A stretch of 64,000 bases of DNA from a virus (Duplodnaviria > Caudoviricetes): the IMG/VR virus record IMGVR_UViG_3300013382_000001, positions 34,185 to 98,184 of that record; one strand, 5' to 3'. Positions 485-53,927 of the stretch are shown piece after piece. A model generated the notes under the pieces. That model was given only the letters and a program-made list of their open reading frames with translations. It was not told where the DNA came from and made no database searches. Numbering within the stretch: position 1 is the first letter of the stretch; each line of letters opens with the position of its first letter. The position numbers and the translations under genes were made by a program.

Positions 485-830
485 GAATTGCGCCCCTTCA
501 AGGTGAATTGCTGGAAGCCTTAAAGTTTTATTTACTACAACATAAGCATGAAATAAAGCTAAGTGTGAATGTTATAAAAAACAATAAAAATATATAGGTA
601 ATCAGCAGCCAAGCTCCGAACAGGAGAAGGTTCAGAGACTATTCCAATGGCGAGGTAAATGCTCGCAATAGAAGTACGACCACAAAGCTAGTGGTGGGTG
701 AGATTCCCTTAAATGGAAGTGCCTTGACACGAAAGTGAAGATATAGTCCGAACTTATAGGAAACTATAAGGAAGAAAGTTTTATAAATAAAACTTTCTTT
801 GGCTAATGTAGCGAATTAGCTTAACAATTG
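485..830 (+). ncRNA. Group I self-splicing intron (no ORF) in tape measure gene
   Basis: Core elements in order: P aattgctggaa, Q aatcagcagcc, R tcagagactat, S aagatatagtcc (P7 gactat/atagtc). The exon ends in U, pairing with gccc in P1. The intron ends in G830. ttgc can pair with exon-2 gcaa (P10). Splicing gives in-frame NIQAG|ANQTQNLSAIL. Confidence 0.9.
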
Positions 831-3800
831 GCAAATCAAACACAAAATTTGAGTGCCATTCTTCAAAATTTTGACCAAGTTTTAAATGCACATGATTTAG
901 CATTGAATGCATCGGGTTCGGCTGTGACAGAAAATGCTCGTGCAATGGAGAATCTTAACAAAAAGATTGATAACTTAAAAGCGTCTTGGTCTGAAATAGT
1001 TCTTGCATTTGTAAATTCTGAGGCAATTGGCAACATTCTTGATAAAGTTAGTTCTGCACTTCGTGATATTGCAAATAATGAAGCAGCAATTAACACAATT
1101 GTAACTCTTGTTAAAACTTTACTTCTTTTAGCAGGTTCTAAAGCTATAGTAGACTTTTTTAGTGGAGTAAAAGCATCAGTAGTACAGTTGCTTCCTAAGA
1201 TTACAGAATTTATCACAAAATTGACCGCAGTGAAGGCTGTTTTGATAGGTGCTGAAACAGCAACAGGTACATTAGGTACAGCATTTTTGGGTTTAGTTAC
1301 ACCTCTTGGGGTAGTTATAGGTTTACTTTCTGTTCTTGCTATAGGTATTGCTGCTTATAACAAGGTTCAAAAAGCACCATCAGAACGCCTTGAAAAAGAT
1401 AAAAAGACCCTTGAAGATACTAAGGAAAAATATACTGAAATCAAGAAAGAATACGACGAACTTCTTAGCCGTCAAAAGACTCTAAACTCTCAAGGTAAAG
1501 ACCTTAATGACGCAGAAAAAAAGCGTTTGGAATTACTCGAACAACAAACAAAGGAACTCGAAGAACAAGAAAAGCAACAGATGGCAAATGTTGCCGCAAG
1601 TACCGTTGGCACATTACAATATACCCAAACAGGAACTAAGACTGTTAGAAAAGGGCAAGAATTTGCTGTTGTTGATACAGAAGAAGTTTATAAAGGTCAA
1701 AAGGCATTTGATGCAATGGCTAATGCGATTGCCGAAGCCACGGAGCAATACGAAAAAGGCGAAATTACACTTAATGATTATAATGGTCGGACAGGCGAAT
1801 TAAAAGAACAACTTGATACAGTTTATGATTCGTATTTGGAAGTTATTCGTTCGGGTGGCGAGCTTAATGAACAAGACCAACTTAACTATGTCACACTTGT
1901 TAATTTAAAGGCGGCATGGGTTGATGCCGAAGGTGCATCAAGCGCTTATGCTCAAGCATTAGCTAAAGTTTCGCCCAATACAAATGAAGCAATACAATTA
2001 ACTGACTTATATAGTGATTCTTTGGTGCGTGTAGGGAATCAATATTATTTCGTTACACAAGCCGCAAAAGATGCTGCAATAAAGCAGCTCTCAACAGAAA
2101 TTTCTTTAACAAAGAATGTGCTCGAACAAGTACAAACAAGGATTGCAGCTCGTGCATTAGAATATGATTCGATTGTGCAATTTAATAAAGAGGCTTTAAA
2201 ACACGCTTCTCCAACTAGTGCGGGGCAATTTTACGAGAGCAATCAAGGGCAAGCAGTTCAAAAATATTATAAATTAAAACGAAACCTTGAAAAGCTGAAA
2301 AATATTAAAGTTAAAAGTAACAGTATAGATGACACAAAGTCTCCGAACAAAGATACGACAAAAGGCAGGGGTAGCTCATCGGGTGGCGGTAGTTCCTCAT
2401 CTGACACTTCTCAAAAATCCCGTGAACTTCTTGAAAAATATAAAAAAGAATTAGAGGAATATCAAGAAGCACAAGAAGATGCTTATAAAAAAGGTGAAAT
2501 CTCAGCTTCTAAATATTATTCTAATATTCAAAAGAAGGGTAAAGCCCTTTGGCAAGATCTAAAAAAGCGTGGCAAAGATTATGCAGATTCGGCTCAATCT
2601 ATGTTTGACGCTTATGTGAGTGCTAATTCTAATTCAGTTAAAGAGATTTTCTCCGAGCTAGATTATCGTTACAAAGAAGGCGATCTTACAGGTAGACAAT
2701 ACTACAATAATCTTTGGAAATATGCTAATAAGTTCTACAAGAATGGAAAGCTTTCTTTTGATGAATATAGAGATTATGTATCTAAGGGCTATGACGCTTT
2801 ATTTGACCAACTTGAAGATAATTATAATGATGGTACAATTAGTGCTGAAAAATATCAAGAACAAGTAAAAAAGGCTCAATCTGACGCAAGTGAAGCAATT
2901 CGTAACGCAACTAAAAAGGGTTTAATTGATAAATCTGTAGCCAGTGAAGTTTACAATCTTTTAGTTAAGCGTGGGGCAGAAGCGGCAAATAGTGTTGCTA
3001 AGGCACTTCATGATTCTATGGTTAAGGCTGCAAAAGAGGCTGTTGCGGAAGCTGAAGCTGAACTTGAAAAGGCTCAAAAGAGACAAACTCAAGCCGAAAC
3101 CTATATTAGTGCTTTGCAATTTTGGTCTGACGAAGAGCAAGAACGAATTGACAAGGTTATTGATGGTTACAATGACGAGATTGATAAACTTCAAGAACAA
3201 CTTGATTTACTTGATGAACAAAATGATGCATTAGACAAGCAAGCAGAGCGGGTAGAACTTGTGAATGCTTTAGAAAATGCGAAAAAGAAAAAAGTTCGTA
3301 TATATGATGCAAAATATGGCTGGGCATGGGGTGAAGATAAAAAGGCTGTATCTGAGGCTCAAACCGCTCTTGATGAGTTCGATAAAGAGCAAGCACGACA
3401 AAAAGAAAAAGACGCTATCAATGCCGAAATTAAAGCTCTTGAGGAACTGATTAAGAAAAAAGAAGCTGAAAAGCAAGCATATCAAGATGTAATTGATGAA
3501 CAAACAAAAGCCCTTAATCGTTATAATATAGAAGCTCAACTTGGTGTCACTATTGAAGAAGCCATATTCCAAGATAGAATTGAAAATTTTGATAATTGGA
3601 AAAATTCGTATATTAGTGGCATACATGAAGTTATTTCTGCTATTGAGGCTGTTAATGACGCTCAAAGTAGAGTTGATTTTTCGCAGTCTGAACTTGATAG
3701 AATTGAAGCTGAAGAAGCCCCAGAGATTAAAACAGGTAAAACTTCAACCACTGGTGCAGGATATCAATATACTGACGATATGTCGAAGCAAGAAAAGCGT

Positions 3801-4268
3801 AACGCTGCTGTTCGTGCTAATATTGAAATGCGTAAAGCACAAGGGTATGAAGTTACTGAATGGTATGATTCAAATGGTGATTTGCACTATAAAGCTTCAA
3901 GTACGAAAACTTCCAAGAGTAATGTTAAATCTGGTGATGCAACCAATCTAAAGAAGAACAAACGTGCCTCTGGCGATGTTTCAATTCCTAAATCTGGAGT
4001 TTATAATGTAAACGAACTTGGAGACGAGCTTATCGTACCACCAAAAGGTAATTTCGATTATCTTAAAAAGGGTACTGGGGTAGTTCCTGCTAACTTAACA
4101 AGAAATCTCATGGATTGGGGTAAGTTTAATCCTAAAAATTTACTTGGTAAACAAATGTCAAGCGTTACGAACGACCATTCGATTACAATTCAAAATCTTA
4201 CAGTGCAATCGGATAACGCAAAAGATTTCGTAAGACAATTACAAAATCTTGCAATTGTTAAACAATAA
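831..4268 (+). CDS. Tail tape measure protein, exon 2
   Basis: Long alpha-helical/coiled-coil ORF with hydrophobic segments, in frame with exon 1 after splicing. The ORF-track TTG start at 828 is the intron end. Confidence 0.88.
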   Translation, partial: ANQTQNLSAILQNFDQVLNAHDLALNASGSAVTENARAMENLNKKIDNLKASWSEIVLAFVNSEAIGNILDKVSSALRDIANNEAAINTIVTLVKTLLLLAGSKAIVDFFSGVKASVVQLLPKITEFITKLTAVKAVLIGAETATGTLGTAFLGLVTPLGVVIGLLSVLAIGIAAYNKVQKAPSERLEKDKKTLEDTKEKYTEIKKEYDELLSRQKTLNSQGKDLNDAEKKRLELLEQQTKELEEQEKQQMANVAASTVGTLQYTQTGTKTVRKGQEFAVVDTEEVYKGQKAFDAMANAIAEATEQYEKGEITLNDYNGRTGELKEQLDTVYDSYLEVIRSGGELNEQDQLNYVTLVNLKAAWVDAEGASSAYAQALAKVSPNTNEAIQLTDLYSDSLVRVGNQYYFVTQAAKDAAIKQLSTEISLTKNVLEQVQTRIAARALEYDSIVQFNKEALKHASPTSAGQFYESNQGQAVQKYYKLKRNLEKLKNIKVKSNSIDDTKSPNKDTTKGRGSSSGGGSSSSDTSQKSRELLEKYKKELEEYQEAQEDAYKKGEISASKYYSNIQKKGKALWQDLKKRGKDYADSAQSMFDAYVSANSNSVKEIFSELDYRYKEGDLTGRQYYNNLWKYANKFYKNGKLSFDEYRDYVSKGYDALFDQLEDNYNDGTISAEKYQEQVKKAQSDASEAIRNATKKGLIDKSVASEVYNLLVKRGAEAANSVAKALHDSMVKAAKEAVAEAEAELEKAQKRQTQAETYISALQFWSDEEQERIDKVIDGYNDEIDKLQEQLDLLDEQNDALDKQAERVELVNALENAKKKKVRIYDAKYGWAWGEDKKAVSEAQTALDEFDKEQARQKEKDAINAEIKALEELIKKKEAEKQAYQDVIDEQTKALNRYNIEAQLGVTIEEAIFQDRIENFDNWKNSYISGIHEVISAIEAVNDAQSRVDFSQSELDRIEAEEAPEIKTGKTSTTGAGYQYTDDMSKQEKRNAAVRANIEMRKAQGYEVTEWYDSNGDLHYKASSTKTSKSNVKSGDATNLKKNKRASGDVSIPKSGVYNVNELGDELIVPPKGNFDYLKKGTGVVPANLTRNLMDWGKFNPKNLLGKQMSSVTNDHSITIQNLTVQSDNAKDFVRQLQNLAIVKQ

Positions 4269-7095: not shown

Positions 7096-8292
7096 ATGGC
7101 TGATATTAGCTTTAATCAAATTAATCCCCAAAGATATATTACACTTGTAAAAGACCAAGCGATACGTCCACGTTTTCGCTTAAATTTACTATATCAAGAT
7201 GAAAGTATTAGAGAAGATATTACTCCTTATATTATTGATGGGTCGGGTAGCTTGCAAATTCAATATGCGCAAGGCAAACGCAGAAGTTTAAATTTTACCT
7301 TAAATAACGAAACAGGGCAATTTACTCCTGTGGATATGAATAGCAAAATATGGGTTAATACAAAATTTAAGCTTGAACTTGGTATGGAATTTGCAAATGG
7401 TGATATTGTATGGAATAACGCAGGAATTTTTGTTGTTGGTAATCCAAGCGCAATAAGACAAGGTGGACAAACAACAATGGATATACAATGTTATGATAAA
7501 TTTGCTTTGCTTGATGGAACACTCGGGGGCACTCTTGAAGCGACCTATGAAATTGATGCAGATGAAAAAATTTATAATATTGTAGTTGATACATTGACTC
7601 AAGATAATGGCAATGGTTATCCGATTGATTTAAAACCTGTTTTGTTTGATAATTCACTTATTGACGAAAAAACAGTTTACGCCTTATCTAAAGCTGCGAA
7701 TGAATCGCTTGGGGCAATTTTGATTGAACTTGCAGATATGATTGCTTGTGATATTTACTATAACGAAGAAGGAAATCTTGTAATTGATTCGGGAATCAAG
7801 GATATTGCTCAAGTGAATAAACCTACACTTTGGACTTTTTCCGACGAAGAGTTTTCTTATATTTCTAATACCGTGACGTATGACTTTACGAAACTCCGCA
7901 ATAGGGTAACGGTTGTAGGGTCAAATGTGAATGGTGATAATATATATGTAGCAACATCTGAGAATACCAACCCTCGTTCGTCAAGTAGAATTGAGGTTGT
8001 GGGGATTAGAAATTATTATTTAGAAGATGCAAATATATATTCAGACTACTTGGCTCAATCAAGGGCTGATTATGAGCTTAACAAACTTTCAATATTGCAA
8101 CAAACAATACAAATATCAAGTACTTTTATGATACATTTAGATGTAAATAATTGTATTGCTCTTGAGGACAATTTCTTTAATTATTACGACTCAAGATTTA
8201 TTATTCAATCAATTTCAATTCCTTTATCAACAAGGTCACAAATTTCGATTGAATGTACGAATATTGCAAGTTTACCATATTATCCAAGCTAA
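7096..8292 (+). CDS. Baseplate hub / Tal-like protein
   Basis: Pattern typical of hub proteins (RRSLNFTL, CYDKFALLDG, DIYYNEEGNL, RNRVTVVG); position in tail module. Confidence 0.6.
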   Translation: MADISFNQINPQRYITLVKDQAIRPRFRLNLLYQDESIREDITPYIIDGSGSLQIQYAQGKRRSLNFTLNNETGQFTPVDMNSKIWVNTKFKLELGMEFANGDIVWNNAGIFVVGNPSAIRQGGQTTMDIQCYDKFALLDGTLGGTLEATYEIDADEKIYNIVVDTLTQDNGNGYPIDLKPVLFDNSLIDEKTVYALSKAANESLGAILIELADMIACDIYYNEEGNLVIDSGIKDIAQVNKPTLWTFSDEEFSYISNTVTYDFTKLRNRVTVVGSNVNGDNIYVATSENTNPRSSSRIEVVGIRNYYLEDANIYSDYLAQSRADYELNKLSILQQTIQISSTFMIHLDVNNCIALEDNFFNYYDSRFIIQSISIPLSTRSQISIECTNIASLPYYPS

Positions 8293-8303
8293 AGGAGGAT
8301 AAC

Positions 8304-8585
8304 ATGAATAATGAAGAAATGCAAACACTCATAGATATTATGAAGCAAGTTGCAAGAACAGAATGTAAAAAAATTCTAAAAGAAAATAATATAGAAACAA
8401 TTATGTATGGAAAAGTTATCGCCTCCACAAGTAAAGGATATACAATTCAAATTGCAGGAGGCGATAAGCCATACACTGGTCTTAAAAATAAAAGCAATAG
8501 TTCTATTTCTATTGGAGATTCCGTTATTGTAAAAGCAATTAATGGAAACGCAGGAAATGGTTATATTGCAGTCAAAATGGGATAG
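8304..8585 (+). CDS. Small baseplate protein (possible OB-fold spike-like)
   Basis: AAGGAGG RBS before ATG 8304; GKVI...GDSVIV pattern following the hub gene. Confidence 0.5.
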   Translation: MNNEEMQTLIDIMKQVARTECKKILKENNIETIMYGKVIASTSKGYTIQIAGGDKPYTGLKNKSNSSISIGDSVIVKAINGNAGNGYIAVKMG

Positions 8586-8599
8586 AAAGGAGGATTTAT

Positions 8600-8953
8600 A
8601 TGGCATGGACAAATATTGCTAATGGCGATAATACAGGCGATATACTTAATAAGATTAATGGTATTGGGGCATACTTAGCAAGTGCAACAGAGATAATAGA
8701 AAATTATCAAATTCCAACTTCTGCGTGGGTTAATGATTCAACTTATACAGATTTTCCATATAAAGCCGATATCCCATTTAGTGCTTGTACTCCTAATCAT
8801 ATCCCATATGTTCATTTTGGAATTGACCAAGAGATAAGTGGAAGTTATATTGGTGCTACAAGCGGAGATGGAAAGGTGAGTATATGGAGTGATAAGAAAG
8901 AATCTTTTATAATTCCATATATATTACTTTTTGAAGGGAGTGATAATATATGA
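8600..8953 (+). CDS. Tail fibre adaptor-like protein, copy 1
   Basis: IPTSAWVNDS...FPYKADI...IPYI domain shared with 8950-9309 and the C-terminus of 15112-16350. Confidence 0.55.
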   Translation: MAWTNIANGDNTGDILNKINGIGAYLASATEIIENYQIPTSAWVNDSTYTDFPYKADIPFSACTPNHIPYVHFGIDQEISGSYIGATSGDGKVSIWSDKKESFIIPYILLFEGSDNI

Positions 8954-9309
8954 GTTTAGATTGGAAAAATATTGCAGATGGTGACATTGCAAGTTCGGTT
9001 AGAACGAAATTAAATAACTTAGGGCAATATGCAAGTGATTTAATCTCAATTATTGAAAATACAACTATTCCAACTTCAACATGGGTTAGTGATACTACAC
9101 ATTCACCTTTAGCTTTTAAGGCAACGATTCGTATAAGTGACATAAGTAATACCGATATTGCAGTTATTCTTTTTTCACAAGTTGACCAATCAACCTACAA
9201 TTATGCAGGAGGCGAAACAGGGAATGGAATTCTTACGATTTACGCGCTTACAAAACCAACTGAAACAATTACAATTCCGCAAATCCTAGTATTTAAGGGG
9301 GTGTCATAA
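8950..9309 (+). CDS. Tail fibre adaptor-like protein, copy 2 (tandem paralogue)
   Basis: WKNIADGD / IPTSTWVSD / KPTETITIPQI aligns end to end with the preceding ORF. Confidence 0.55.
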   Translation: MSLDWKNIADGDIASSVRTKLNNLGQYASDLISIIENTTIPTSTWVSDTTHSPLAFKATIRISDISNTDIAVILFSQVDQSTYNYAGGETGNGILTIYALTKPTETITIPQILVFKGVS

Positions 9310-10631
9310 TGGCGAATGGTTGGACAAATGCAAATAATTTTAAACCATGGACGCAATATGAATTTACTCCAGGAACAGAGGATATTATAATTCCGAAAGG
9401 TAGTTATTTAAGTCAGACTATTAAAGTACATGGTGATTCAAATTATGCATCGTGTAATATTGTACAAGGTGAAAGTGTGGGCGATATTCCATATGGATCT
9501 GCAAATACACCTGTGCGCAATTTTCCATGTGGAGAATTTTATTCTAAAAACTCTTCTTTCCCATGTGGATGTATTGATATACAATATAATCAGTCGTTTC
9601 TTTCAACAAAAGAGGCTACCTTTAACAACCATGTCATAAAATGCGATGAAACGGGGGTTTATTGGATATTTATCGTCAACAGCAAAACAACAATCAATGA
9701 TAAAAATGCATATAGAAGTGAAGATTCTGGAGCTACTTGGACTCCTATTCGGACACAGCTGGATGATCTTACTAAGAGTGCATTAGATTATGTAATAATT
9801 AATAATATAAATTATTGGCTTGTCTCTGGTGTTGATTGGATAGATGAAGATCCAACCGATACTGTATGCTCGTATTCAACTGATTACGGCAACACATGGG
9901 AAGTAGGTCGCTATGATAAAAATGTAAAAGCATCATATTTTATAATAGGATGTCCCGGAAAAACAGATGAATTTCCATTTATGGGCATTATTAAGACTGT
10001 CGATAATCAAATCGATATTATACAATCCAGAGATTGCGAACAATGGACAAAAGTACAAACATTAACTGTTTCTGATACAACACAGCCATTAGACATGATA
10101 TGGGATAAAAACCAAAAATGTTATTATATTTTAATGGCAGGCAACTTATATAAGAATGGTCAACTTATGAATATATCAATACCCGAATCCGATTTGGTAA
10201 CACAAATAGTTTTGGGAAGAGAAACCGATCATTTGTATGCAGTAATACCCAATGGTTTATATGATATAAATACTACAACAAATGCAATTTCTGTGTCAAA
10301 AACTTTACAAGAGTATTTGAGTAATATTGCTACACTCGGTATAAATCATACAGAATGGATAACTAGAGTGGAATATTTTAATTCGGTATTCTTTTTAATA
10401 GGAAGTTCTGAAACGCCTTACATACTAGAATATTGGGTAGAAGGTAGTTCGATAGGGCTTGTGTCAACATCGTTTGCATCTAATTGCTGTTGGATGCACG
10501 CGTCCAGCAACAAAATATATACTTCATATCGGGTATTGGTGCAGTCAATTTATGAAAGCGGTCGTTATCACTATCCGAGCAAATTTCCTATGTTAACACA
10601 GTGCGACATTACCATAAAAGGAGAGATATAA
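9309..10631 (+). CDS. Putative receptor-binding tail-tip protein with Asp-box (BNR) beta-propeller
   Basis: Asp boxes RSEDSGATW, YSTDYGNTW, QSRDCEQW; N-terminal TPGT...G.Y...GD.N fibre motif. Confidence 0.6.
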   Translation: MANGWTNANNFKPWTQYEFTPGTEDIIIPKGSYLSQTIKVHGDSNYASCNIVQGESVGDIPYGSANTPVRNFPCGEFYSKNSSFPCGCIDIQYNQSFLSTKEATFNNHVIKCDETGVYWIFIVNSKTTINDKNAYRSEDSGATWTPIRTQLDDLTKSALDYVIINNINYWLVSGVDWIDEDPTDTVCSYSTDYGNTWEVGRYDKNVKASYFIIGCPGKTDEFPFMGIIKTVDNQIDIIQSRDCEQWTKVQTLTVSDTTQPLDMIWDKNQKCYYILMAGNLYKNGQLMNISIPESDLVTQIVLGRETDHLYAVIPNGLYDINTTTNAISVSKTLQEYLSNIATLGINHTEWITRVEYFNSVFFLIGSSETPYILEYWVEGSSIGLVSTSFASNCCWMHASSNKIYTSYRVLVQSIYESGRYHYPSKFPMLTQCDITIKGEI

Positions 10632-12035
10632 ATGATAAGTAAATGTAATCTTAATCAATGTGCAAAAAAAATTTCAGGTATATCTTTTTATCCTACAAGA
10701 GAGACAACTTATGTGCCAGCTCGTTCTTCATATTTACAAGATAATGGTATAGTCAAAAAAGTTATTAATTTAAACACATTGAGTATTATTAAGAATAAAA
10801 CAATTTTTGGTGTTTCAGGGAGTGTTCAGACTTATCAGTATAAAATTGCTTCTCACTCTTCATATGTAGGTGGTGTAACTGTCGCAGATTATAGCGTAAT
10901 TCACAAGGGAGGAGATACAGAATATAGGAGTATTACCCCTATATCTCGTCAACCCCAACAAATATCTTTTTCTACAGCACCATGTTACCCCACAAAAATG
11001 GGGTGTGTTTTTTCTGATTATATTACAAAGAACTTACAGCTTTTAGGAGTCAAAAATAATTATATATATATGCTCAATGATAATCAATGGATTATTTGTC
11101 AAATAAGAAATACAGAAACTTATACGTGGCAAAAAAACATAAACATAATTGATACTTCTACCATTAGAGCATACTGCGATGATACAGGTCTTTATTTGTA
11201 TGCTGATAATATTTTAAGGAAATACGCCGTTGATGATGGTAATGTAACATGGACAAAACAAATGGCTATAGATTATTTCAAAGTTACTCAGGATAGTATC
11301 GTTATTGCTTTATCTGCTAATAATGTGTATTATATTGATTCAAATTCGGGCAATATATTACATACCTACAAACAATCCTTTTTTTCTGTTGGTAGAGATA
11401 ACATATCCATTGATTGGATTTCGGGTTATGTGGTCATGCATAATATCTCTAACAACAATCAAGCATATAGAGTCATTGTCCTTAATAAAGATGGTGAGGT
11501 TTTGTATAATTTAACAAGTGGGTTTCCATTTCTCTATGATAACATACAAACAATTGCGATTTTATCAAATCAAAAACTGGTTGTCGTTTATAAAGCTATA
11601 GATACATATGGTAATATAACACACACGATGGGGGCATTAATAACCTTGTCAACATTAACATATACTCTTTTAGACTATGATTATACGCCTTATCAAACGA
11701 TTTGTAGCGACGACATTCAGGAAGTGGTTTCTCCAAATGGTAATGGCATATATACTGTTTTGTCTACAGGTTCGGCTACTGGTTTGGAAAATAAAATTAT
11801 AGTTACGAGAATGCAAATTACAAACGGTAGAGCAGGATTCAATCAAATATTAGAGAATAAGGTTACACAAAATCTACCTTTTATGCCTTCTTGCTGTTTT
11901 GATAACAACAAAATATATTATATTGCAAATGACGAAGCTAATTCACAAACAAATCGAATTATGGGGATGTGTGATAATTATGGCTGTGCAACATATTTTA
12001 TAGATACTGTTTATATATTAGATAGATATGATTAA
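10632..12035 (+). CDS. Putative receptor-binding tail-tip protein (beta-propeller-like)
   Basis: N-terminus resembles that of 9309-10631 (PT.ET...P...SYL...NL...I.K.KTIFGVSG). PQQ-like motifs AVDDGNVTW and IDSNSGNIL. Confidence 0.5.
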   Translation: MISKCNLNQCAKKISGISFYPTRETTYVPARSSYLQDNGIVKKVINLNTLSIIKNKTIFGVSGSVQTYQYKIASHSSYVGGVTVADYSVIHKGGDTEYRSITPISRQPQQISFSTAPCYPTKMGCVFSDYITKNLQLLGVKNNYIYMLNDNQWIICQIRNTETYTWQKNINIIDTSTIRAYCDDTGLYLYADNILRKYAVDDGNVTWTKQMAIDYFKVTQDSIVIALSANNVYYIDSNSGNILHTYKQSFFSVGRDNISIDWISGYVVMHNISNNNQAYRVIVLNKDGEVLYNLTSGFPFLYDNIQTIAILSNQKLVVVYKAIDTYGNITHTMGALITLSTLTYTLLDYDYTPYQTICSDDIQEVVSPNGNGIYTVLSTGSATGLENKIIVTRMQITNGRAGFNQILENKVTQNLPFMPSCCFDNNKIYYIANDEANSQTNRIMGMCDNYGCATYFIDTVYILDRYD

Positions 12036-12054
12036 ATAGCAAGGGGGTAAATAT

Positions 12055-12414
12055 ATGATTGGATTCTAGTTTGTTGTCTACGGCTCTGCCACTAAACAGT
12101 GAAACTGTAGAACTACCTGCGTATGACGCGGATATCAAACCGAATACCTTTGTGTCGATTGCAGATACGCAAGCAGATTCTTGGATTACAGAGCTTCAAG
12201 ACAACACAATAGTAGAAGACAGTAGCTCTAATGATGCAACGCAAGCACAATTTTTCAGTATAGACACAACGCATTTTGCATTGATGTATTTCACAAACAG
12301 TTATACATTGTAAAAATTGCAAAGGTCAATACAGACGGAACATGTGAAATTATACACACCTTCTCTGACAACAGTAGTTATAATTACACAAACAAAATAG
12401 ATGAAGTAGAATAG
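12055..12414 (+). pseudogene. Frameshifted, truncated tail-tip-like gene
   Basis: RBS aagggggt, then ATG ATT GGA TTC TAG. The body is in another frame (12059-12313), and the tail returns to the leader frame (YIVKIAKVNTDG...EVE*). Confidence 0.5.
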
Positions 12415-12423
12415 GAGGAAAAA

Positions 12424-12837
12424 ATGTCATGCGTAAATTTACTTATTAGCCACAATATAATCATTCAAGGTTCAACCCCAACTCTCTGTCTTCACCTTGA
12501 TTATGATATATCAGACCCACAGACAGAGGAAGAGGCAGAATATAAAGATTATTATGACACGACCGTAATTATCAAATATAGCCTTACTGATTATCTTTAT
12601 TATACATCTCAAAACGACCTCACAATTCTGCCCGATGTTATTGATGAAGAATCATGTTCGTGTGAGTGTCAACAAGGATGCACGATTTTTCTTGATTTAT
12701 CTCAAGAAGATACAATTAAATTCAAGAAGCAAATTTATATACAAGTTATTGCCAAGAATAAAAATAGCGGAGCTGTGTTGGAAACATTTGAAGTTCCGAT
12801 TAATATATGTAGAAAATTAGATAGGAAGGTGATATAG
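12424..12837 (+). CDS. Tail-associated protein (BppU N-terminal-like)
   Basis: IIQGSTPTL...LSQEDT.KF....IQV pattern; AGGAGG RBS. Confidence 0.45.
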   Translation: MSCVNLLISHNIIIQGSTPTLCLHLDYDISDPQTEEEAEYKDYYDTTVIIKYSLTDYLYYTSQNDLTILPDVIDEESCSCECQQGCTIFLDLSQEDTIKFKKQIYIQVIAKNKNSGAVLETFEVPINICRKLDRKVI

Positions 12838-13199
12838 TGGGAAATTGTAATTGTGGGTCAAATACAACGAATATGTGTATTCCCAATAAGCCTCTAAATG
12901 ATTCATACAATTATAATAATTTACGAAATAAACCCGAAATCAATGGTGTTTCCCTTATGGGAAAACAGACATCGGTTGATTTAGGGCTTTATGGGGAAGG
13001 AAATCCCGAAACATATGCATTTGAACAGAAAGTTGCAAGTGCGCTCTGGCACATTGAACATAATTTGAAAAAGTTTCCAAGTGTAACTGTTGCTGATTCC
13101 GCAGGTAATATTGTAGTCGGTGAAGTTATATATATAGATGAGGGAGCTTTAGAGATTGCTTTTAGTGGTGCTTTTAGTGGCATTTGTTATTTAAACTAA
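12837..13199 (+). CDS. Tail fibre-associated small protein
   Basis: YNNLRNKPEINGVSL and WHIEHNLKKFPSVTV motifs, typical of fibre/collar proteins. Confidence 0.55.
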   Translation: MGNCNCGSNTTNMCIPNKPLNDSYNYNNLRNKPEINGVSLMGKQTSVDLGLYGEGNPETYAFEQKVASALWHIEHNLKKFPSVTVADSAGNIVVGEVIYIDEGALEIAFSGAFSGICYLN

Positions 13200-13223
13200 T
13201 TTTTATTTAGGAGGAAACCCCTT

Positions 13224-15089
13224 ATGAAATTTTTAACATCTATTAACTTATTACAGAACGAATTACAAAATGCAGTTATTCAACCTTTAGCTGTTGCACC
13301 AGAAAACCCAGTTGAGGGTCAAATTTATTATAATTCTACAAAGAAAACTCTCGAACAGTATGATGGAGCTAATTGGAATGTAGTAGGTAAAGAATATACA
13401 TTACCGACAGCAAGTGCTGACGTTCTTGGTGGTATCAAAGTTGGTGCAGGATTACAGATTTCTGACCAAGGCACTCTTTCCACAACTGGTGGCGGTGTTG
13501 CTGATTCCGTTGAATGGACAGGCGTACTTGATACACCGACCGATTTAGCAGGATATGGAATTACTGACGCTAAGATTGAAAATGGTGTAATCACATTAGG
13601 TAAAACCACAATTACACCTGTAACAACTGTAAATGGTAAGACTGGCAATACAGTTACACTTACAGCTGCGGATGTTAAGGCACTTGCTGATGATACTACT
13701 TATGTGGAATCTGTTGACGGACAAAGTGGAGTAGTTACGACAAATGCTGTTAAGTATACAACTCAAACTTTAACTGATGAACAGAAGCAACAGGCAAGAA
13801 CAAATATCGGAGCAGGAACTTCGAGCTTTGATGGCGATTATAATAGCTTATCTAACACGCCAACTATCGATACAGCTTTAAGTGCAACTTCTACGAACGC
13901 TGTTGAAAACAAAGCTGTGACAGCTGAACTTAACAAGAAATATGATGAAACTAATCAACCACCATATCCTGTAACAAGTGTAGCTGGTAAGACTGGTGCA
14001 GTTACGCTTGCTAAAGGCGATGTTGGTTTAGGTAATGTTGCAAATGTTCTCCAATATTCTGCTGATAACGAACCGCCTTATCCTGTAACAAGTGTTGATG
14101 GTGAAACGGGTGCGGTTGTACTGAGCGATGTTAAGTATACAGAACAGACTTTAAGTGAAGCTCAGAAGACTCAAGCAAGAACTAATATTGGTGCAGGCAC
14201 AAGCTCCTTCTCTGGCAGTTATAATGACTTAGATGATAAGCCAACTGTTGATACTGCTATGAGTGCAGACTCCACAAATGCAGTTCAGAACAAGGTTATC
14301 AAAGCTTATGTTGATGGTATTGTAGCAGCAAGCCAAGGTATTGTTTATAAGGGAACAATTAATAAGACGGATGATATTCCTACAACTTATAATGTTGGCG
14401 ACCTCTATATGATTGCAACCGCAGGTACTTATGTAGGACAAGTATGTGAAGTTGGAGATTTGATGATTGCTGTTGTAGAAAGGAAAGGTACAGGTAACCA
14501 AAATTCTGACTGGGATGTTATTCAGACGAATATTGATGGTGCAATCACTGAAATTACTGGTGACGCTCCGATTTCTGTAACTGGAACAGGTGCAAGTAGA
14601 GAAATTGCTCTTGCTGATTCTGGTGTAACAACTGGTGGATATGGTGATACTGCTAATCAAACTCCTGCATTTGGTGCAACATTCAAAGTTCCAAGCTTTA
14701 CAGTTGACCAATATGGTAGATTGACAGCAGCAGGTGAACACACAGTAACCATTCCGGCAACTGTTGCAACAGATACGGTAGCAGGTATTATGAGTGCCGC
14801 AGACCACAAGAAATTAACTAATGGTCTTGCTGATATTGGAACATTAAAAACTGATGTAGAGACACTTAAGGGCAAAGATGTAACTAAATATGTTGTTACT
14901 ATTCCAACAGGACAAACAACTGCAACTGCTACGATTGCGGAAAGTGTTGATGTTCTTTCTGTGATCGCTACAAATAATACAACAGGTGAAGAAGTAATGA
15001 TTGATAGTTCTGTAAGTGGCACAACATTTACAGCTTCTATTGCTAAATCTGTTGGTTATGCTGTAAAGGTAGTTGTTACTGTATTATAA
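13224..15089 (+). CDS. Long tail fibre protein with internal repeats
   Basis: Repeated VTSVxGKTGAVxL and QTL...QARTNIGAGTSSF.G.YN.L...PT.D units; LPTAS..VLGGIKVG; VDQYGRLT. Confidence 0.75.
   Translation: MKFLTSINLLQNELQNAVIQPLAVAPENPVEGQIYYNSTKKTLEQYDGANWNVVGKEYTLPTASADVLGGIKVGAGLQISDQGTLSTTGGGVADSVEWTGVLDTPTDLAGYGITDAKIENGVITLGKTTITPVTTVNGKTGNTVTLTAADVKALADDTTYVESVDGQSGVVTTNAVKYTTQTLTDEQKQQARTNIGAGTSSFDGDYNSLSNTPTIDTALSATSTNAVENKAVTAELNKKYDETNQPPYPVTSVAGKTGAVTLAKGDVGLGNVANVLQYSADNEPPYPVTSVDGETGAVVLSDVKYTEQTLSEAQKTQARTNIGAGTSSFSGSYNDLDDKPTVDTAMSADSTNAVQNKVIKAYVDGIVAASQGIVYKGTINKTDDIPTTYNVGDLYMIATAGTYVGQVCEVGDLMIAVVERKGTGNQNSDWDVIQTNIDGAITEITGDAPISVTGTGASREIALADSGVTTGGYGDTANQTPAFGATFKVPSFTVDQYGRLTAAGEHTVTIPATVATDTVAGIMSAADHKKLTNGLADIGTLKTDVETLKGKDVTKYVVTIPTGQTTATATIAESVDVLSVIATNNTTGEEVMIDSSVSGTTFTASIAKSVGYAVKVVVTVL
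13750..14310 (+). repeat. Internal duplicated fibre repeat units
   Basis: Two copies of VKYT.QTL...QARTNIGAGTSSF.G.YN.L...PT.DTA.SA.STNAV.NK, and two PPYPVTSV units (tatcctgtaacaagtgt twice). Confidence 0.75.
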
Positions 15090-15111
15090 TATGACTTAAA
15101 AAGGAGGGTCT

Positions 15112-16350
15112 TTGACCATGAAAAATTTAGGGGCAATTTCAGACCCGAAAGACATAATTACAAAAGAATATTTAGATGAGGGTATTGGCAAAACTGTCAA
15201 TACCCTTGAAGATAATGTACAAATGGCTGAAAGTGATATTGAGTCACTTCAGACTGATGTTGGCACATTACAAACAGATAATACTGCAACAAAGGCAGCT
15301 GTTAAAACCTTACAAGATACATATGTGCCGAATACCAGGAAGGTGAATGGTAAGGCGCTTGATGTCGATATAGAATTAACTGCTTTCGATGTAGGTACTC
15401 AACCCGCTGAATGGGAGTGGAAGGGCGACCGTGCTTATGGCTTGGTTATCGGCACAGGAAGCGGACACGACGTTGAAATAGGTCAAATGACAGTGGAAAC
15501 GACCGAAGATAGTTATGTTGCTTATTATTATGGTCGTTATGTGGATAATTCTTATATTAAGACATCTTTTGATTCTGCATCAAGTTATCGAGCTGTTGAA
15601 GTATCAATCGAGCCGACTACTGATATGGGGATTGTTAATAAAAAGTTTTTAGAAACTCAACTTGCGAATATATCTATTCCAACAAAAACCTCACAGCTCA
15701 CTAATGATAGTGGGTTCCTTACTTCTGCCCCAGTCACTAGTGTAAACAGTAAGACAGGGGCTGTGAAACTTACGGCTTCTGATGTGGGGGCATTATCGTT
15801 AAATGACGGTGGTTCAGTTGGTGGTGGCGTTACCTTCAATGGTAGCGTTATTATAAATGGTGGTGTTAGTCTTAATGGTGTTTTAAAGACAGATATAGAT
15901 TTGGCAAATGCTCATATGTTAAAAAATGGAACAATAGAAAATGTTACCTTTAAAGAATGTACACTAAGTAGCGATTTTAATACAGGCGGTTATTCCATTG
16001 CAGGTCTTCCAACTCCTACATCCAGTTCTGAAGCTACCAATAAAGAATATGTTGATGGTCTTGCTATTCACACAGTTTTATCCACATCCGTTCCGACTAC
16101 AGCATGGGTAACTAACACTAACTCTCAAGCCACAACTCAAGAAAAAACGGATTTTCCATTTATGGCAACCATATCCATTTCGGGTATGACTACGAATTTT
16201 GGTGTTGATGTGTTATTGACTTATGATGACCAAATAAGTGGTAATTTCTGTTCATGTGTATATTCTACATCTGGTGGCGTTATTATTGAGGCTAAGGAAA
16301 AACCAACTACTACAATCACAATTCCTGTGATTCGTTATTGGAAATCTTGA
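15112..16350 (+). CDS. Tail fibre protein with C-terminal adaptor-like domain
   Basis: VPNTRKVNGKAL, IPTKTSQLTNDSGF, ATNKEYVD fibre motifs; C-terminal VPTTAWV...DFPFMATI...KPTTTITIP. Confidence 0.72.
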   Translation: MTMKNLGAISDPKDIITKEYLDEGIGKTVNTLEDNVQMAESDIESLQTDVGTLQTDNTATKAAVKTLQDTYVPNTRKVNGKALDVDIELTAFDVGTQPAEWEWKGDRAYGLVIGTGSGHDVEIGQMTVETTEDSYVAYYYGRYVDNSYIKTSFDSASSYRAVEVSIEPTTDMGIVNKKFLETQLANISIPTKTSQLTNDSGFLTSAPVTSVNSKTGAVKLTASDVGALSLNDGGSVGGGVTFNGSVIINGGVSLNGVLKTDIDLANAHMLKNGTIENVTFKECTLSSDFNTGGYSIAGLPTPTSSSEATNKEYVDGLAIHTVLSTSVPTTAWVTNTNSQATTQEKTDFPFMATISISGMTTNFGVDVLLTYDDQISGNFCSCVYSTSGGVIIEAKEKPTTTITIPVIRYWKS

Positions 16351-16375
16351 TAAAAACAACAAAAAAAAGGAGTAC

Positions 16376-16778
16376 ATGATTATGATAGGACGGGCTAATA
16401 TATTAAATAATGTTTCGGGGGGGGGGGGGGGGGGATCATTGTTGATATCAAAAAGGATATAGACCTTCCAATCAAAGTTGATTTTATACCAACATTTGTT
16501 GGTATAAATGATAAAACATATAGTGGGTAACTCTTTCGAGATTTATATTAGGTTGTAGTGATGTATACATTATAAATACTGATTTACCTCAAAGTATTTT
16601 GTCGGAAGATGTTCATATATCTTATAAATTTACTGACGCGTTAGATTATAGAACTAAAATGATTTGGGTGTATTCAACCACATCTCAAATGTTGAATAGG
16701 TATATCGATAACGGATCTATATATTCAATATCGCCTATGTCTGATATAGATTTCTTACTTATATGTCAAACGAATTAA
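16376..16778 (+). pseudogene. Poly-G interrupted tail-tip-like gene (MIGRANILNNVSGGG...), currently out of frame
   Basis: AAGGAG RBS; leader, then G18 (16417-16434). Continuation GIIVDIKK...TYSG lies in the -1 frame. A further shift at ggg 16525-16527 leads to VTLSRFILG...ICQTN*. Confidence 0.6.
16417..16434 (+). repeat. G18 homopolymer
   Basis: Directly visible. Confidence 0.9.
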
Positions 16779-16799
16779 ATTAATAAAAGGAGGTATTAA

Positions 16800-17696
16800 A
16801 TGGCTAAATTTTGCGGAGGCTTCAAGTTTAACCCAACAAGCCTCAAGTTGATAAAGGGGATTCTTTGCCTTTCCGATGCTCAAGATGCCGATATAACAAA
16901 AGCCGTGACTGGCTGCGGGCAGATGTGGGATGGAGAGACATTTAAAATTGTAAAAGTCGATGGTTATAAACCATGCATTACATTGAAAACAAATGGTCAT
17001 CCTGTTCAAAATATACTTATAGGAAATTGCGGTATTAGTTTGGATGGTGAATTCTTTATGAAGGACTCATCCACACAAGCCGTTAGTGTAGTCAACGGTT
17101 ATATTTTGAAGATTACAGTTATTCCATCATCTGCACAAGTTGTAGTAATGAACGAAGCTCAAGAGGTCATTCAGCCAACAGGCATTAATACATACACTTT
17201 GAGTGACATTGATGCAAAATATAGTGTGACTGTCAGTGAAAAAGGATATATTGGACAAAGTAGAACAATTGTGAATAATCAAAACCAGAGTTTGATTTTG
17301 ATGTTAAGTAATGTTCTGTCACTTTACAATGGTAGCATTGATATTCAAAACAAGGCGACTTATGGCGATGTAGACCAATATGTAGTATCGTTCCCTACTC
17401 CAATTGCATTTGAAACAGGTCAACAATATCAAGTAACCTTTGATCATAAAAAATATATTGTGACAGCGCAAAGTGCAGCAAACACTGATGTAACAGGTTC
17501 TTATACGCTTGTATATTTAGGTACTACAAATGGTGATATTAAAATTGGTACAGCTGGAACAATTGAGAATCCATCCTTCACTGATTATCCATTTATGTTG
17601 AAAACTAAGATAGATGATAAAGGTGAATTAGAATCTACATCGATTTCTGCTACTAAAGCAGGTAATTATGAACTTAAAATTATTCCATGGGAATAA
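16800..17696 (+). CDS. Hypothetical virion-associated protein (Ig/PEGA-like segment)
   Basis: AAGGAGG RBS; LKITVIPSSAQVVV...YSVTVSEKGY pattern. Confidence 0.5.
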   Translation: MAKFCGGFKFNPTSLKLIKGILCLSDAQDADITKAVTGCGQMWDGETFKIVKVDGYKPCITLKTNGHPVQNILIGNCGISLDGEFFMKDSSTQAVSVVNGYILKITVIPSSAQVVVMNEAQEVIQPTGINTYTLSDIDAKYSVTVSEKGYIGQSRTIVNNQNQSLILMLSNVLSLYNGSIDIQNKATYGDVDQYVVSFPTPIAFETGQQYQVTFDHKKYIVTAQSAANTDVTGSYTLVYLGTTNGDIKIGTAGTIENPSFTDYPFMLKTKIDDKGELESTSISATKAGNYELKIIPWE

Positions 17697-17725
17697 AAAG
17701 ACAGAGAATCAACTCTGTCTTTTTT
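17695..17725. terminator. Bidirectional intrinsic terminator between convergent modules
   Basis: aaaaagacagag-aatcaa-ctctgtcttttt, with A and T tails on either side. Confidence 0.8.
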
Positions 17726-17907
17726 CGGATTCATTTAGATTCTATAATTGTTACATCTTTTATAGCATTTTCCTCTTTGGTCTTATGCCCCCATCATGCG
17801 ATTATTTCGCCCTAATACAATATGGACTATTATCTGCAAAAGCAAATAATGCAACATCTGGTTTACATAAACGGCATGTTTTACATACGCACGCATTGTT
17901 ATGAATG

Positions 17908-18390
17908 CTAATGGAGTTTTTTATCTGTTGGCAGTTTGACACCATTAGTACTACCGAATCCCCCATCTTTTCGTTCGCTATCAATCGTCATAATTTCTTC
18001 TTCTGTATATTCTTCAATCACTTTTTTTGGATTCGGAATAAGTACCCCTTGTGCAATTGCTTGAGTCAGATCAAGATTATAAGGTTTGTCTGTTGTGTTC
18101 TCTAAGCACACAATTATTTCCCCTCTATACCCACTATCAATAACGCCTGCTCTAAGTGCAATACCTTGTGAACCAAGTGAACTACGTTCCTTGAGAATCA
18201 TGCTATATTCTTTATCCATAGCCATAATAATACCAGTCGACAACTTTGCCACCATATGTGGTTCGAGCGTATATTGTAATTGAGACTGATTAAAATAGTA
18301 AAAATCTAATCCTAAATCTTCTTCCCTCCCTGTTGGAATTGTTGCTGTAGGTAAGCACTTAGCGAACTTAATTGTAGTAACATCTCTCAT
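17908..18390 (-). CDS. dut: dUTPase (trimeric type)
   Basis: GLDF, RSSLG, GVIDSGYRGEI, IAQG, RKDGGFGST motifs. Confidence 0.92.
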   Translation of the reverse strand: MRDVTTIKFAKCLPTATIPTGREEDLGLDFYYFNQSQLQYTLEPHMVAKLSTGIIMAMDKEYSMILKERSSLGSQGIALRAGVIDSGYRGEIIVCLENTTDKPYNLDLTQAIAQGVLIPNPKKVIEEYTEEEIMTIDSERKDGGFGSTNGVKLPTDKKLH

Positions 18391-19048
18391 AAAATTCGTT
18401 ATCCTCCTGTTCTTTCTTTATTTCTCGAATTGTATCAGCGTAAGCTTCGGCTGCATTAATACAAAATCTTACCAAACCATCATTAAATTCATTCCATGTG
18501 TAGTCACATATTGTTGTGGTATTCCATGGTTGTAAAATTTTAATAACGGCAAATGGTGGATTTTGCTTTAGCATAAACTTTTCTAGCGTTTCTGGTTTAT
18601 CATCAATGACGATATCTGCATCAAGCCTCCACTTTTCTTTCATGCAGATAATTTGGCTTGGTTTGATAAACGGAAACAACTCAAAAAAGCGGTTTAATTT
18701 AGCTGTAGCCGTTTTATAATGGGTATCCGTACAAATTATTAAGTCGATATTTTTGTGGGCATTGAGTGTATTTAACGCAGTTTTGATGGTTGGTGAAACA
18801 GTAATATTCTGCCAAAAGATATCATCAGCTAAAACATCCCAGAATAATTTTTTATTACTCGGATTAAGACGCTCTTCAATATCCCAAGAAGTTACCATTG
18901 ATTTATTGAGTGACTTATCGTGTTCATCGTCTAAAATAGCGTACTTATAACTTTGTGCCCGTCGTTTTTTATAAGTTGTAATCCAGTTTTCCACTAAATC
19001 CCATATACAATCATCAATATCTATCATTATGGTAATTTTGTCATACAT
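18368..19048 (-). CDS. 5'(3')-deoxyribonucleotidase (NT5C-like HAD)
   Basis: IDIDDC motif I and IVIDDKP motif IV. Confidence 0.8.
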   Translation of the reverse strand: MYDKITIMIDIDDCIWDLVENWITTYKKRRAQSYKYAILDDEHDKSLNKSMVTSWDIEERLNPSNKKLFWDVLADDIFWQNITVSPTIKTALNTLNAHKNIDLIICTDTHYKTATAKLNRFFELFPFIKPSQIICMKEKWRLDADIVIDDKPETLEKFMLKQNPPFAVIKILQPWNTTTICDYTWNEFNDGLVRFCINAAEAYADTIREIKKEQEDNEFYERCYYN

Positions 19049-19653
19049 TTTTTTTCTCCTTGATAATAATGGTCTAATTCTGCCATGCTCATAAGATGGT
19101 AAATTTGAAGCCCGGCCTTTTCAATAGTGTCATTTAAATTGTTAGTAACTGCAAATGTATATTGCAAATTATCAAATTTTTTAACATCGTTTGTAATTCT
19201 AGCTCCGATAGTTTCGTCATCATCTCCTCTTATCTCCATACGTGCAGCACGAACATAAACACTTGCATAAAGATATATAGTTAAAAGCTCTTTATTTAAC
19301 CCATATTTTTCTTTATATTGTTTCAGAGTTTCAATTCCATCAGGGTCAATAATATAAATGTCTGAATTTTCAACTTGTTCTTTTGTTGCACAATATTTAT
19401 ATCCGTCAAATTCTGTATAGGCAACCTTATCCTCGAGAGCCTCAAATTCCTCTTCTGATATAAAAATATGTCCTTTTTCACCCTCAAATCTTGGTGGACG
19501 TGTGGTATAAGATTCTAAAACCTTCATATCAAAATTTTGTGCTACAAAGTTTGCAATCGATGTTTTACCACATCCCGATTCTCCGACAAGTAATGTCAAT
19601 ACTTTTTTATCATGATTTCTCATAATAATATTAACCATTTTTTGACTAATCAT
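19027..19653 (-). CDS. Guanylate kinase-like protein
   Basis: GESGCGKT P-loop, SYTTRPPR, E.GH.F. Confidence 0.85.
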   Translation of the reverse strand: MISQKMVNIIMRNHDKKVLTLLVGESGCGKTSIANFVAQNFDMKVLESYTTRPPRFEGEKGHIFISEEEFEALEDKVAYTEFDGYKYCATKEQVENSDIYIIDPDGIETLKQYKEKYGLNKELLTIYLYASVYVRAARMEIRGDDDETIGARITNDVKKFDNLQYTFAVTNNLNDTIEKAGLQIYHLMSMAELDHYYQGEKKCMTKLP

Positions 19654-50618: not shown

Positions 50619-50739
50619 TTAAACACAGAAGCCGAAGCACCCGCCCGACGTTTTCTTCGCCGTCCCGCTCCGCGCGCCCGATCCGCCTTCATTGTTCCAT
50701 CTCCCAGCCGGAAGGGAAAGCGTTCGTTAAACCTCTCAT
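50619..50739 (-). pseudogene. GC-rich collapsed remnant of an MxGxTNA-type tail-tip gene
   Basis: AGGAGGT RBS, MRGLTNAFPSG..., and in another frame ...AKKTSGGCFGFCV*; flanked by hairpins. Confidence 0.4.
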
Positions 50740-53610: not shown

Positions 53611-53927
53611 TTATGTCCAAGGAGCAACAGATGTTGCCTCATAGTTGCTACCAACGACAATAATATTAGTTGCAAGCTGTCTATTTCCATTTGTATCTGA
53701 TATAATCACATCTTTATAATTTGTAGTTTGAGCAGCATATCTTTTTCCATCATAATCAGTTCCTATAAAAAATTTATAAGAAGTACTATCTGCAACACCA
53801 ATATTATATTTACTATTTATCCAATTCTCCCATGTCATATTCTCATCAGCATAATAAGAACAGTTGTTTACACGAAATGCCCCCCCGAAACACTATTTTT
53901 CGATACCATATTTGTCATTCCTATCAT
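53611..53927 (-). pseudogene. Poly-G interrupted tail-tip-like gene (MIGMTNMVSKNSVSGG...), currently out of frame
   Basis: GGAGG RBS; ATGA overlap with upstream gene; G7 at 53880-53886. One extra G gives ...SGGAFRVNNCSYYADENMTWENWINSKYN... Confidence 0.68.

Follow-up and report, generated by a model that had tools for sequence, protein, structure and literature searches.

Tailed phages of several kinds attach a separately encoded receptor-binding protein (RBP) to a structural protein of the tail. In KP32, KP34, K1-5/K1E/SP6 and G7C, a T4gp10-like branching domain has been modelled together with a conserved N-terminal docking peptide (PMC6872550); the peptide can be as short as 7 residues and differs between phage groups (PMC6872550), and the dual-RBP principle of branching domain and peptide has been validated experimentally, by engineering (PMC13352976). 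The baseplates of the lactococcal P335-type siphophages TP901-1 and Tuc2009 contain the holder-RBP pair BppU/BppL (PMC4742702, PMC3186816), and in phages of the T2/T6/S16 type the gp37 fibre carries gp38, an adhesin encoded by a gene of its own (PMC3157838, PMC12032242). The stretch analysed here (the window; 64,000 nt) comes from a gut phage and corresponds to bases 34185-98184 of a complete virus record of 98,184 bp with direct terminal repeats, IMGVR_UViG_3300013382_000001. Its tail module, on the plus strand, encodes three copies of a domain of ~85 residues (the socket), together with genes whose products begin with a similar short peptide (the leader, or plug). The two probably make up a two-part connector, in which a socket at the end of a fibre receives a separately encoded, swappable receptor-binding tip that is docked by its N-terminal peptide.

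An earlier, sequence-only reading of the window had reported the domain to be present in three copies, and comparison of the proteins confirmed this. Small adaptors 1 (117 aa; 8600-8953) and 2 (119 aa; 8950-9309), whose genes overlap by 4 nt, were 36% identical (BLASTP E 2e-24), and the last ~95 residues of a tail fibre (410 aa from its ATG, 15118-16350; third socket at ~16063-16347) matched the two adaptors at E 2e-8 and 2e-7. The list of open reading frames (ORFs) starts this fibre at a TTG at 15112 (412 aa). A genome-wide search with a hidden Markov model detected exactly three socket copies and no further one. The leader starts quoted in the same reading were also present: MANGWTNA at 9309, MISKCNL at 10632, MIGF followed by a stop codon at 12055, and MIGRANILNNVS at 16382, followed by a tract of 18 G residues (G18; 16417-16434). 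As to whether these starts form a family, the pattern M[IAR]G.[TA]N occurred three times in the window versus 0.07 expected, but the likeness seen in the window alone was thin: only MANGWTNA and MIGRANI share G-x-[T/A]-N among the tip starts between 9309 and 16382, and MISKCN fits the leader poorly and remains a weak member. It is the comparative data that make the leader family solid.

For this comparison, 80 IMG/VR loci were fetched by the conserved stretch of the domain alone, the socket ORF was located, and the start of the next gene was read. The next gene started with M-x(1,2)-G-x-[T/V/S]-N in 72 of the 80 loci, at a distance of about -22 to +15 nt from the socket stop codon. At the possible starts of the other ORFs in the same loci the motif was found 19 times among 2,565, and several of these occurrences were further tips in series. 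After dereplication, 18 of the 23 socket clusters (70% identity) had a leader downstream. MxGxTN starts are thus enriched next to genes with the adaptor domain, so the proposal of a modular arrangement of sockets and leader-bearing tips holds. The consensus of the plug was M-(A)-[I/V/L]-G-[R/K]-T-N-[A/V], very often followed by a glycine run; typical starts were MIGRTNA, MIGKTNV, MAIGKTNAGG, MAVGRTNA, MLGKTNA and MYGITNA. Seen against these, MANGWTNA of the window has the exact M-A-x-G-x-T-N-A form, and MIGRANILNNVS with its glycine run has the M-I-G-R-x-N form. A search in the reverse direction, with a DNA pattern made up of a ribosome-binding site and MIGRTN, returned six loci: four had the pattern directly behind a socket, and the other two had a socket on the same strand ~2 kb upstream. 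Genome bins of bacteria (labelled Bifidobacteriaceae, Treponema or Acutalibacteraceae; MIGRTNAGGGGGG, MAIGRTNVGGGGG) and of archaea (Methanomicrobiales or Thermoplasmata; MAIGMTNA, MAIGPTNA) showed the pairing too, such labels depending on the binning of viral contigs, which is not fully reliable. These data establish the pairing and its breadth. Given its recurrence in numerous uncultured phages that infect bacteria or archaea, it is probably a widespread, as yet unnamed mode of tip attachment.

Apart from the leader, the leader-bearing proteins had nothing in common, falling into 21 clusters at 50% identity. At the conserved leader positions synonymous codons were used freely (AAC 17 times and AAT 13 times for Asn; ATA, ATT and ATC for Ile; four Gly codons), indicating that it is the peptide, not the RNA, that is conserved; selection on the plug thus acts at the protein level. 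The motif also persisted inside fused proteins: G-K-G-[I/L]-T-N-A was kept between the socket and the following domain in P0018, P0157, P0219, P0196 and P0034, while in P0079, another natural fusion, the socket was joined directly to a DUF6273-type tip with no leader. Exchange of socket-plus-tip cassettes between near-identical phages was directly visible. Two independent assemblies, L099 and L100, were 99.3% identical to the window over 8000-15783; beyond 15783 they had swapped the C-terminal half of the fibre and the tip together, the fibre now ending in ...LNIKVVR-stop and the tip starting with a MGDCFIVRRGG leader. L006 has this combination as well: in both L099:16152-18086 and L006:15457-17290 a fibre end of a second type, ...I-K-V-V-R-stop, was followed by a leader M-G-D-x-x-x-x-R-[R/K]-x-G-G. 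A search for more ...KVVR-stop/MGD... pairs found these two cases only; the KVVR end and the MGD leader may be a parallel plug-and-socket pair.

The same observations bear on the idea that constraints at the gene level maintain the junction between socket end and leader, which would serve as a joint for recombining cassettes or as a coupled-translation signal, while the peptide itself would not bind the socket. Cassettes are indeed exchanged in this region, yet in L099 the swap begins mid-fibre and not at the junction. The ribosome-binding site of the tip often lies in the last socket codons (TGG AGG TGA; W-R-stop) and the gaps are tiny, which a coupling signal would explain; the motif is nevertheless retained within fusions, where no restart is needed, and by leader genes located away from sockets, and the many synonymous codons for the leader residues indicate that the nucleotide sequence is not what is conserved. 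There is accordingly little chance that gene-level constraints alone account for the pairing. In many loci (e.g. L010, L016 and L038) the tip ribosome-binding site was inside the last socket codons TGC TGG AGG TGA (C-W-R-stop), a position that implies tight translational coupling and that may partly explain the frequent W-R ending.

The features predicted for the plug-bearing proteins identify them as receptor binders. Pfam searches of tips returned F5/8-type-C, Ig-like and DUF6273 domains, as well as a sub-threshold match to NANM, of the epimerase propeller type. Diversity-generating retroelements are known to target receptor-binding proteins, and one was found in a relative, L004, whose adaptor 2 is 58% identical to that of the window. 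The gene following the third socket of L004 starts with MAKGMTNAICISGGG and encodes a leader-bearing 484-aa tip; its last 153 nt (17552-17704) form the C-terminal variable repeat of a retroelement spanning 16251-19450. The template repeat (18084-18236) lies 532 nt downstream and differs from the variable repeat only at template adenines, and a gene for an RVT_1 reverse transcriptase (18362-19450) lies beside the tip. This arrangement is the signature of such a retroelement, with the third-socket tip of L004 as its target. No reverse transcriptase was found in the window's own genome. In another locus, L108, the gene order was tape measure (PhageMin_Tail), SPP1_Dit, Tal (Sipho_Gp37), a 275-aa socket protein and a 329-aa protein starting with MLGRTNTGGG; judged from gene order, this position is the holder/RBP slot of siphophage baseplates.

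No chaperone-family Pfam match was found in 12 tips (tips 1 and 2 of the window plus ten from relatives). This result concerns a further explanation, that the leader proteins are tail-fibre assembly chaperones such as Tfa of lambda, Mu and P2, or of the T4 gp38 type, which would attach to the C-terminal domain of the fibre solely for its folding, and that the socket is the receptor-binding knob. A gene lying directly downstream and translationally coupled is usual for fibre-chaperone pairs, and some of the downstream proteins are of small size (86-140 aa), but as a group they range from 86 to 711 aa, are mutually unrelated, and gave no Tfa or Caudo_TAP match in Pfam or PHROG. Past the leader they are hypervariable and carry lectin-type, Ig-like or propeller domains at lengths of up to 711 aa, and that of L004 is the retroelement target just described. 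In favour of a knob, the socket has a likeness to C-terminal beta-sandwiches found in tailspikes and RBPs, and yet it is conserved, not variable as expected of a receptor binder. A chaperone role for the leader proteins is thus very unlikely.

In a profile search of 1.84 billion cluster representatives, the socket was recognized in 2,259 representatives at E<=1e-3 and in 1,042 at E<=1e-10. The best 149 were 83-1,380 aa in length and 15 of them contained two copies; in 139 of the 149 the domain ended no more than 8 residues from the C-terminus. Neither the three window copies nor 49 family members had a Pfam match, and no sequence relative with a solved structure was found in the PDB. Adaptor 2 matched PHROG 23587, to which no function is assigned. 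Searches of GenBank phage records gave no match, whether made with the nucleotide sequence of window positions 8000-17800 or with the adaptor 2 protein; the socket domain of a family member had a metagenome-assembled Methanomassiliicoccales virus as its sole match in a protein search. Phage records in GenBank thus contain almost no members, and the domain defines a large, unnamed fibre-end family of uncultured viruses. A search for related loci with a single adaptor retrieved none, and with alignment A2 it retrieved one. The AlphaFold2 model of adaptor 2 (pLDDT 86) showed a loose N-terminus, a helix at residues 14-29 and a compact beta-sandwich at 31-119. Many of the weak fold matches of the socket were C-terminal beta-sandwiches of phage tailspikes and RBPs; since the matches of the adaptor model are weak, no fold family is claimed.

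A point overlooked in the sequence-only reading is that both small adaptors carry a conserved N-terminal motif of their own, W-T/K-N-I-x-N/D-G-D/E, which reads MAWTNIANGD in adaptor 1, ahead of a short helix and the socket, and MSLDWKNIADGD in adaptor 2. Their subfamily accounted for 16 of the 149 best representatives, with an N-terminus of the form M-A-F-x-W-T-N-I-x-N-G-E...R-x-K-L-N-x-L-G. In L007, in L105 and in the window, an adaptor of the W-T-N-I type follows another socket-ending gene. A very glycine-rich protein of 335 aa, of a kind seen in fibre-tip glycine-rich domains, is encoded between the fibre and the small adaptors of L007 (3501-4508). In L104, a fibre ending in a socket is followed by a small adaptor starting with MAFNWTNISNGE, and this by a 711-aa DUF6273 tip starting with MAQGMVNVILGG. 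Since the motif follows socket-ending genes in relatives, the adaptors look chain-extending and not primary sockets; they look like extension pieces with a plug variant of their own. Another chain was present in L098: after a socket-ending gene comes a 208-aa protein with a MIGRTNAGAGKT start, an Ig-like domain and a terminal socket, and then a gene starting with MIGRTNAGGGKT.

Serial pieces of this sort are hard to reconcile with the suggestion that the leader docks tips elsewhere, on the baseplate or the fibre shaft, that the socket is a trimerisation or stability module, and that the adjacency merely reflects a shared gene order. Leader genes located 2-40 kb from any socket would agree with it, and so would L080-L086, where the socket lies inside proteins of 1,008-1,417 aa and a leader gene still comes next. 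The association holds, however, across 18 socket clusters with unrelated upstream parts, including near-bare sockets of 113-150 aa, and in L099/L100 socket class and leader class change together. Docking at another site is therefore regarded as improbable.

What these patterns suggest is a physical docking of the leader in the socket. In the two-part connector, a beta-sandwich of ~85 residues would end a fibre or baseplate holder, or make up almost the whole of a small protein after a short helix, as it does in the proteins of 117 and 119 aa, and would serve as socket. The plug would consist of the N-terminal 6-8 residues of the protein encoded next, usually continued by a flexible glycine-rich linker and then by an unrelated binding domain, such as a propeller, a discoidin, Ig-like or DUF6273 domain, or a retroelement-diversified lectin-type end. 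By binding the socket non-covalently, the plug would allow one fibre scaffold to accept exchangeable receptor-binding tips, and the fibre would be extended or branched by pieces that carry plug and socket together.

A number of observations weigh against this connector. Five of the 23 socket clusters had no downstream leader, and some sockets precede other starts (e.g. MTLPQLMFRxWDG, in archaeal bins) or holin-like genes; conversely, certain leader genes have no socket nearby (genome positions 3246 and 4306; window position 53927). Most of the 80 loci came from one large metagenome data set. In the AlphaFold2 model of the tandem fusion P0034, computed as a single chain and not as a trimer, both sockets were well folded, but the leader-like G-L-T-N-A linker was disordered (pLDDT <50) and showed no interface with a socket, an outcome that speaks neither for nor against docking in a trimer; the N-terminus of adaptor 2 was likewise loose in its own model. 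The fold matches of the socket were weak (best Z 4.9, best Foldseek E 0.085), and a likeness to tailspike sandwiches would suit a terminal knob no less than a docking platform. In 23 pairs, the last residues of the socket showed no simple co-variation with the leader subtype. In three loci from archaeal genome bins (L094, L095 and L096), both kinds of pair occur within one locus: sockets ending in ...IRR(N/E/D) precede MAIG(M/P)TNA tips and those ending in ...VH(K/Q)G precede MTLPQLMFRxWDG starts, a sample that is too small but that hints at the last residues of the socket setting the choice of partner.

Of the tips in the window, only tip 1 (440 aa; 9309-10631), whose start overlaps the stop codon of adaptor 2, is canonical and intact: it begins with MANGWTNA, and its orthologues in L004, L006 and L102 keep MANGWTNA(N/K)NFK. 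Tip 2 (467 aa; 10632-12035) starts with the weak leader MISKCNLN and is a probable leader gene; its orthologues start with MITNINN, MNISTNIN or MMANTLLTNLN. The description of both as propeller-type received moderate support, through weak Pfam matches to BNR_2/Sortilin (tip 1) and PQQ_2 (tip 2) and through Atlas structure matches to BNR/Sortilin (tip 1) and PQQ/BamB (tip 2) propellers at TM ~0.5-0.58; the two tips are probably beta-propellers. A third tip gene is represented by a remnant (12055-12411) that begins ATG ATT GGA (MIG), meets a stop after 4 codons and continues as open stretches in other frames. It occupies the place of an intact third tip in L102 (426 aa), which starts with MKGLTNILVQGG.

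The poly-G tip behind the fibre socket, named in the sequence-only reading, proved not to be intact. This broken mini-tip (16382-16778) starts with MIGRANILNNVS and loses its frame after the G18 tract, which encodes the glycine linker; a second frame change would be needed near 16530, and ~130 aa would result if both were corrected. The G18 stretch takes the place of a tip of 428-484 aa that in relatives is followed by two small accessory genes (~104 aa; CBM_5_12, ~134 aa), neither of which was found in the window's genome. A small conserved pair of genes follows the leader-bearing tip in L006 (17303-18005), L102, L106 and L108, the first encoding ~104-115 aa and the second ~134 aa with a CBM_5_12-like end (...NVWEPGVYGW); in L004 a similar CBM_5_12-like gene, with a faint Pfam match, is located further downstream. 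Relatives of the broken tips at 12055 and 16382 were found neither in related phages nor in the window, and when virus and metagenome collections were searched for exact matches to the G18 gene, no second assembly came up. The breaks could reflect real slippage, deletion or an assembly fault.

Two further starts named in the sequence-only reading, MIGMTNM (53927) and MRGLTNA (50739), were confirmed on the minus strand, both with strong Shine-Dalgarno sites, although as they stand they are ORFs of only 19 and 16 codons. The first belongs to a small leader-bearing gene, MIGMTNMVSKNSVSGG (53611-53927, minus strand), preceded by a good ribosome-binding site. Its frame is lost at a G7 tract, and the addition of one G would give ~105 aa. 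That it is a spurious short ORF was considered and rejected, given the ribosome-binding site and the G7 tract. The second (50689-50739, minus strand) is probably a remnant.

Genome-wide, the three sockets face up to eight leader-bearing genes with ribosome-binding sites. Two are intact, MANGWTNA and MLGKTNV, the latter lying outside the window, encoding 349 aa and having an in-frame G9; MISKCNL is the probable one; and the broken ones are MKGFSN (G5, out of frame), MIGF, MIGRAN (G18 and a second frame break), MIGMTN (G7) and MRGLTN (16 codons). The suggestion that tips outnumber sockets is numerically true only if broken genes are counted; surplus tips might then compete for sockets during assembly, as the sequence-only reading proposed. 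Four leader genes have a G homopolymer exactly in the codons for the glycine linker (G18, 16417-16434; G7, 53880-53886, minus strand; G5, genome position 4306; G9, genome positions ~3379-3387), and three of the four are out of frame at the tract. The glycine linker of other phages is encoded by mixed Gly codons with no homopolymers, so the G tracts are peculiar to this AT-rich phage. They could be slippage switches, products of decay or assembly faults. A more far-reaching reading, in which the plug and socket form a near-universal connector of phages of Firmicutes, Actinobacteria and spirochaetes and of archaeal viruses, fibres are chained or branched, and slippage at the G tracts (G18, G7 and G5, with G9 in frame) makes the choice of tip phase-variable, is rather doubtful and is put forward only tentatively.

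The tail module in which these genes lie starts with the tape measure gene (828-4268), followed by two baseplate genes, a gene for a Tal-like protein (7096-8292; phrog_1887) and one for a 93-aa protein. The two small adaptors (117 and 119 aa) come next, then the two proteins of ~450 aa and the broken stretch, then two small genes, a 621-aa fibre, the 410-aa fibre with the third socket, the broken stretch of ~400 nt with G18 and a 298-aa gene. The two small genes (12424-13199; 137 and 120 aa, in PHROGs with no known function) are conserved and separate the tips from the long fibre in all relatives.

In the genomes of uncultured phages, no part is harder to predict than host recognition. Across thousands of phages from the gut and the environment, a recognisable socket and a seven-residue plug would let annotators spot the true receptor-binding genes, even those far from the tail module. 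The pairing would explain the cassette-wise exchange of fibre ends and tips and offers a simple, testable rule for matching tips to fibres, and a plug so short and widely shared would be a natural handle for the study of tip assembly and exchange in laboratory phage-host pairs. The leader strings did not come up in a full-text search of the literature.

The window proteins showed no signature of the gp10-like, BppU_N or Gp38 families, and their membership in these is not supported. As in gp37/gp38, the fibre end would be capped by a separately encoded, highly variable, glycine-rich adhesin whose gene lies directly downstream. However, gp38 attaches by a folded N-terminal domain and not by a heptapeptide; no Gp38-family Pfam match was found in the 12 tips scanned; and the glycine run here resembles a linker rather than a polyglycine sandwich, glycine-rich tips such as that of L106 being a possible exception. 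With BppU/BppL the pairing shares the slot after Dit and Tal, seen in L108 and matched in the window by adaptors and tips that come after the Tal-like gene, and the proposed role of the holder's C-terminal domain as carrier of an RBP encoded by its own gene. A faint BppU_N match was present at the N-terminus of a few distant family members, whereas the window adaptors had none, and no BppU chain was among the fold matches; the N-terminus of BppL presumably also differs from the M-x-G-x-T-N motif.

The layout also resembles that of the KP32/K1-5 type, in which a structural protein likewise carries the docking domain, and the next RBP has a short conserved N-terminal peptide and a variable body. 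As in those systems, the pair would allow modular exchange and several RBPs per virion. No sequence relation or clear fold relation of the socket to T4 gp10 was found, and neither gp10 nor G7C gp66 was listed by the fold search, whose nearest related item was the N-terminus of CBA120 TSP4 (Z 3.4). The present pair also differs from the branching-domain systems in that one motif is found on at least 21 tip families, in bacterial and archaeal viruses, usually with a glycine linker, and in that the socket lies at the far C-terminus and is not an N-proximal branch; pieces with plug and socket could also be chained. The working principle is known from a few cultured phages; what is new is this particular pair, which comprises more than 2,000 sequence clusters, extends to viruses of archaea and is used in chains.

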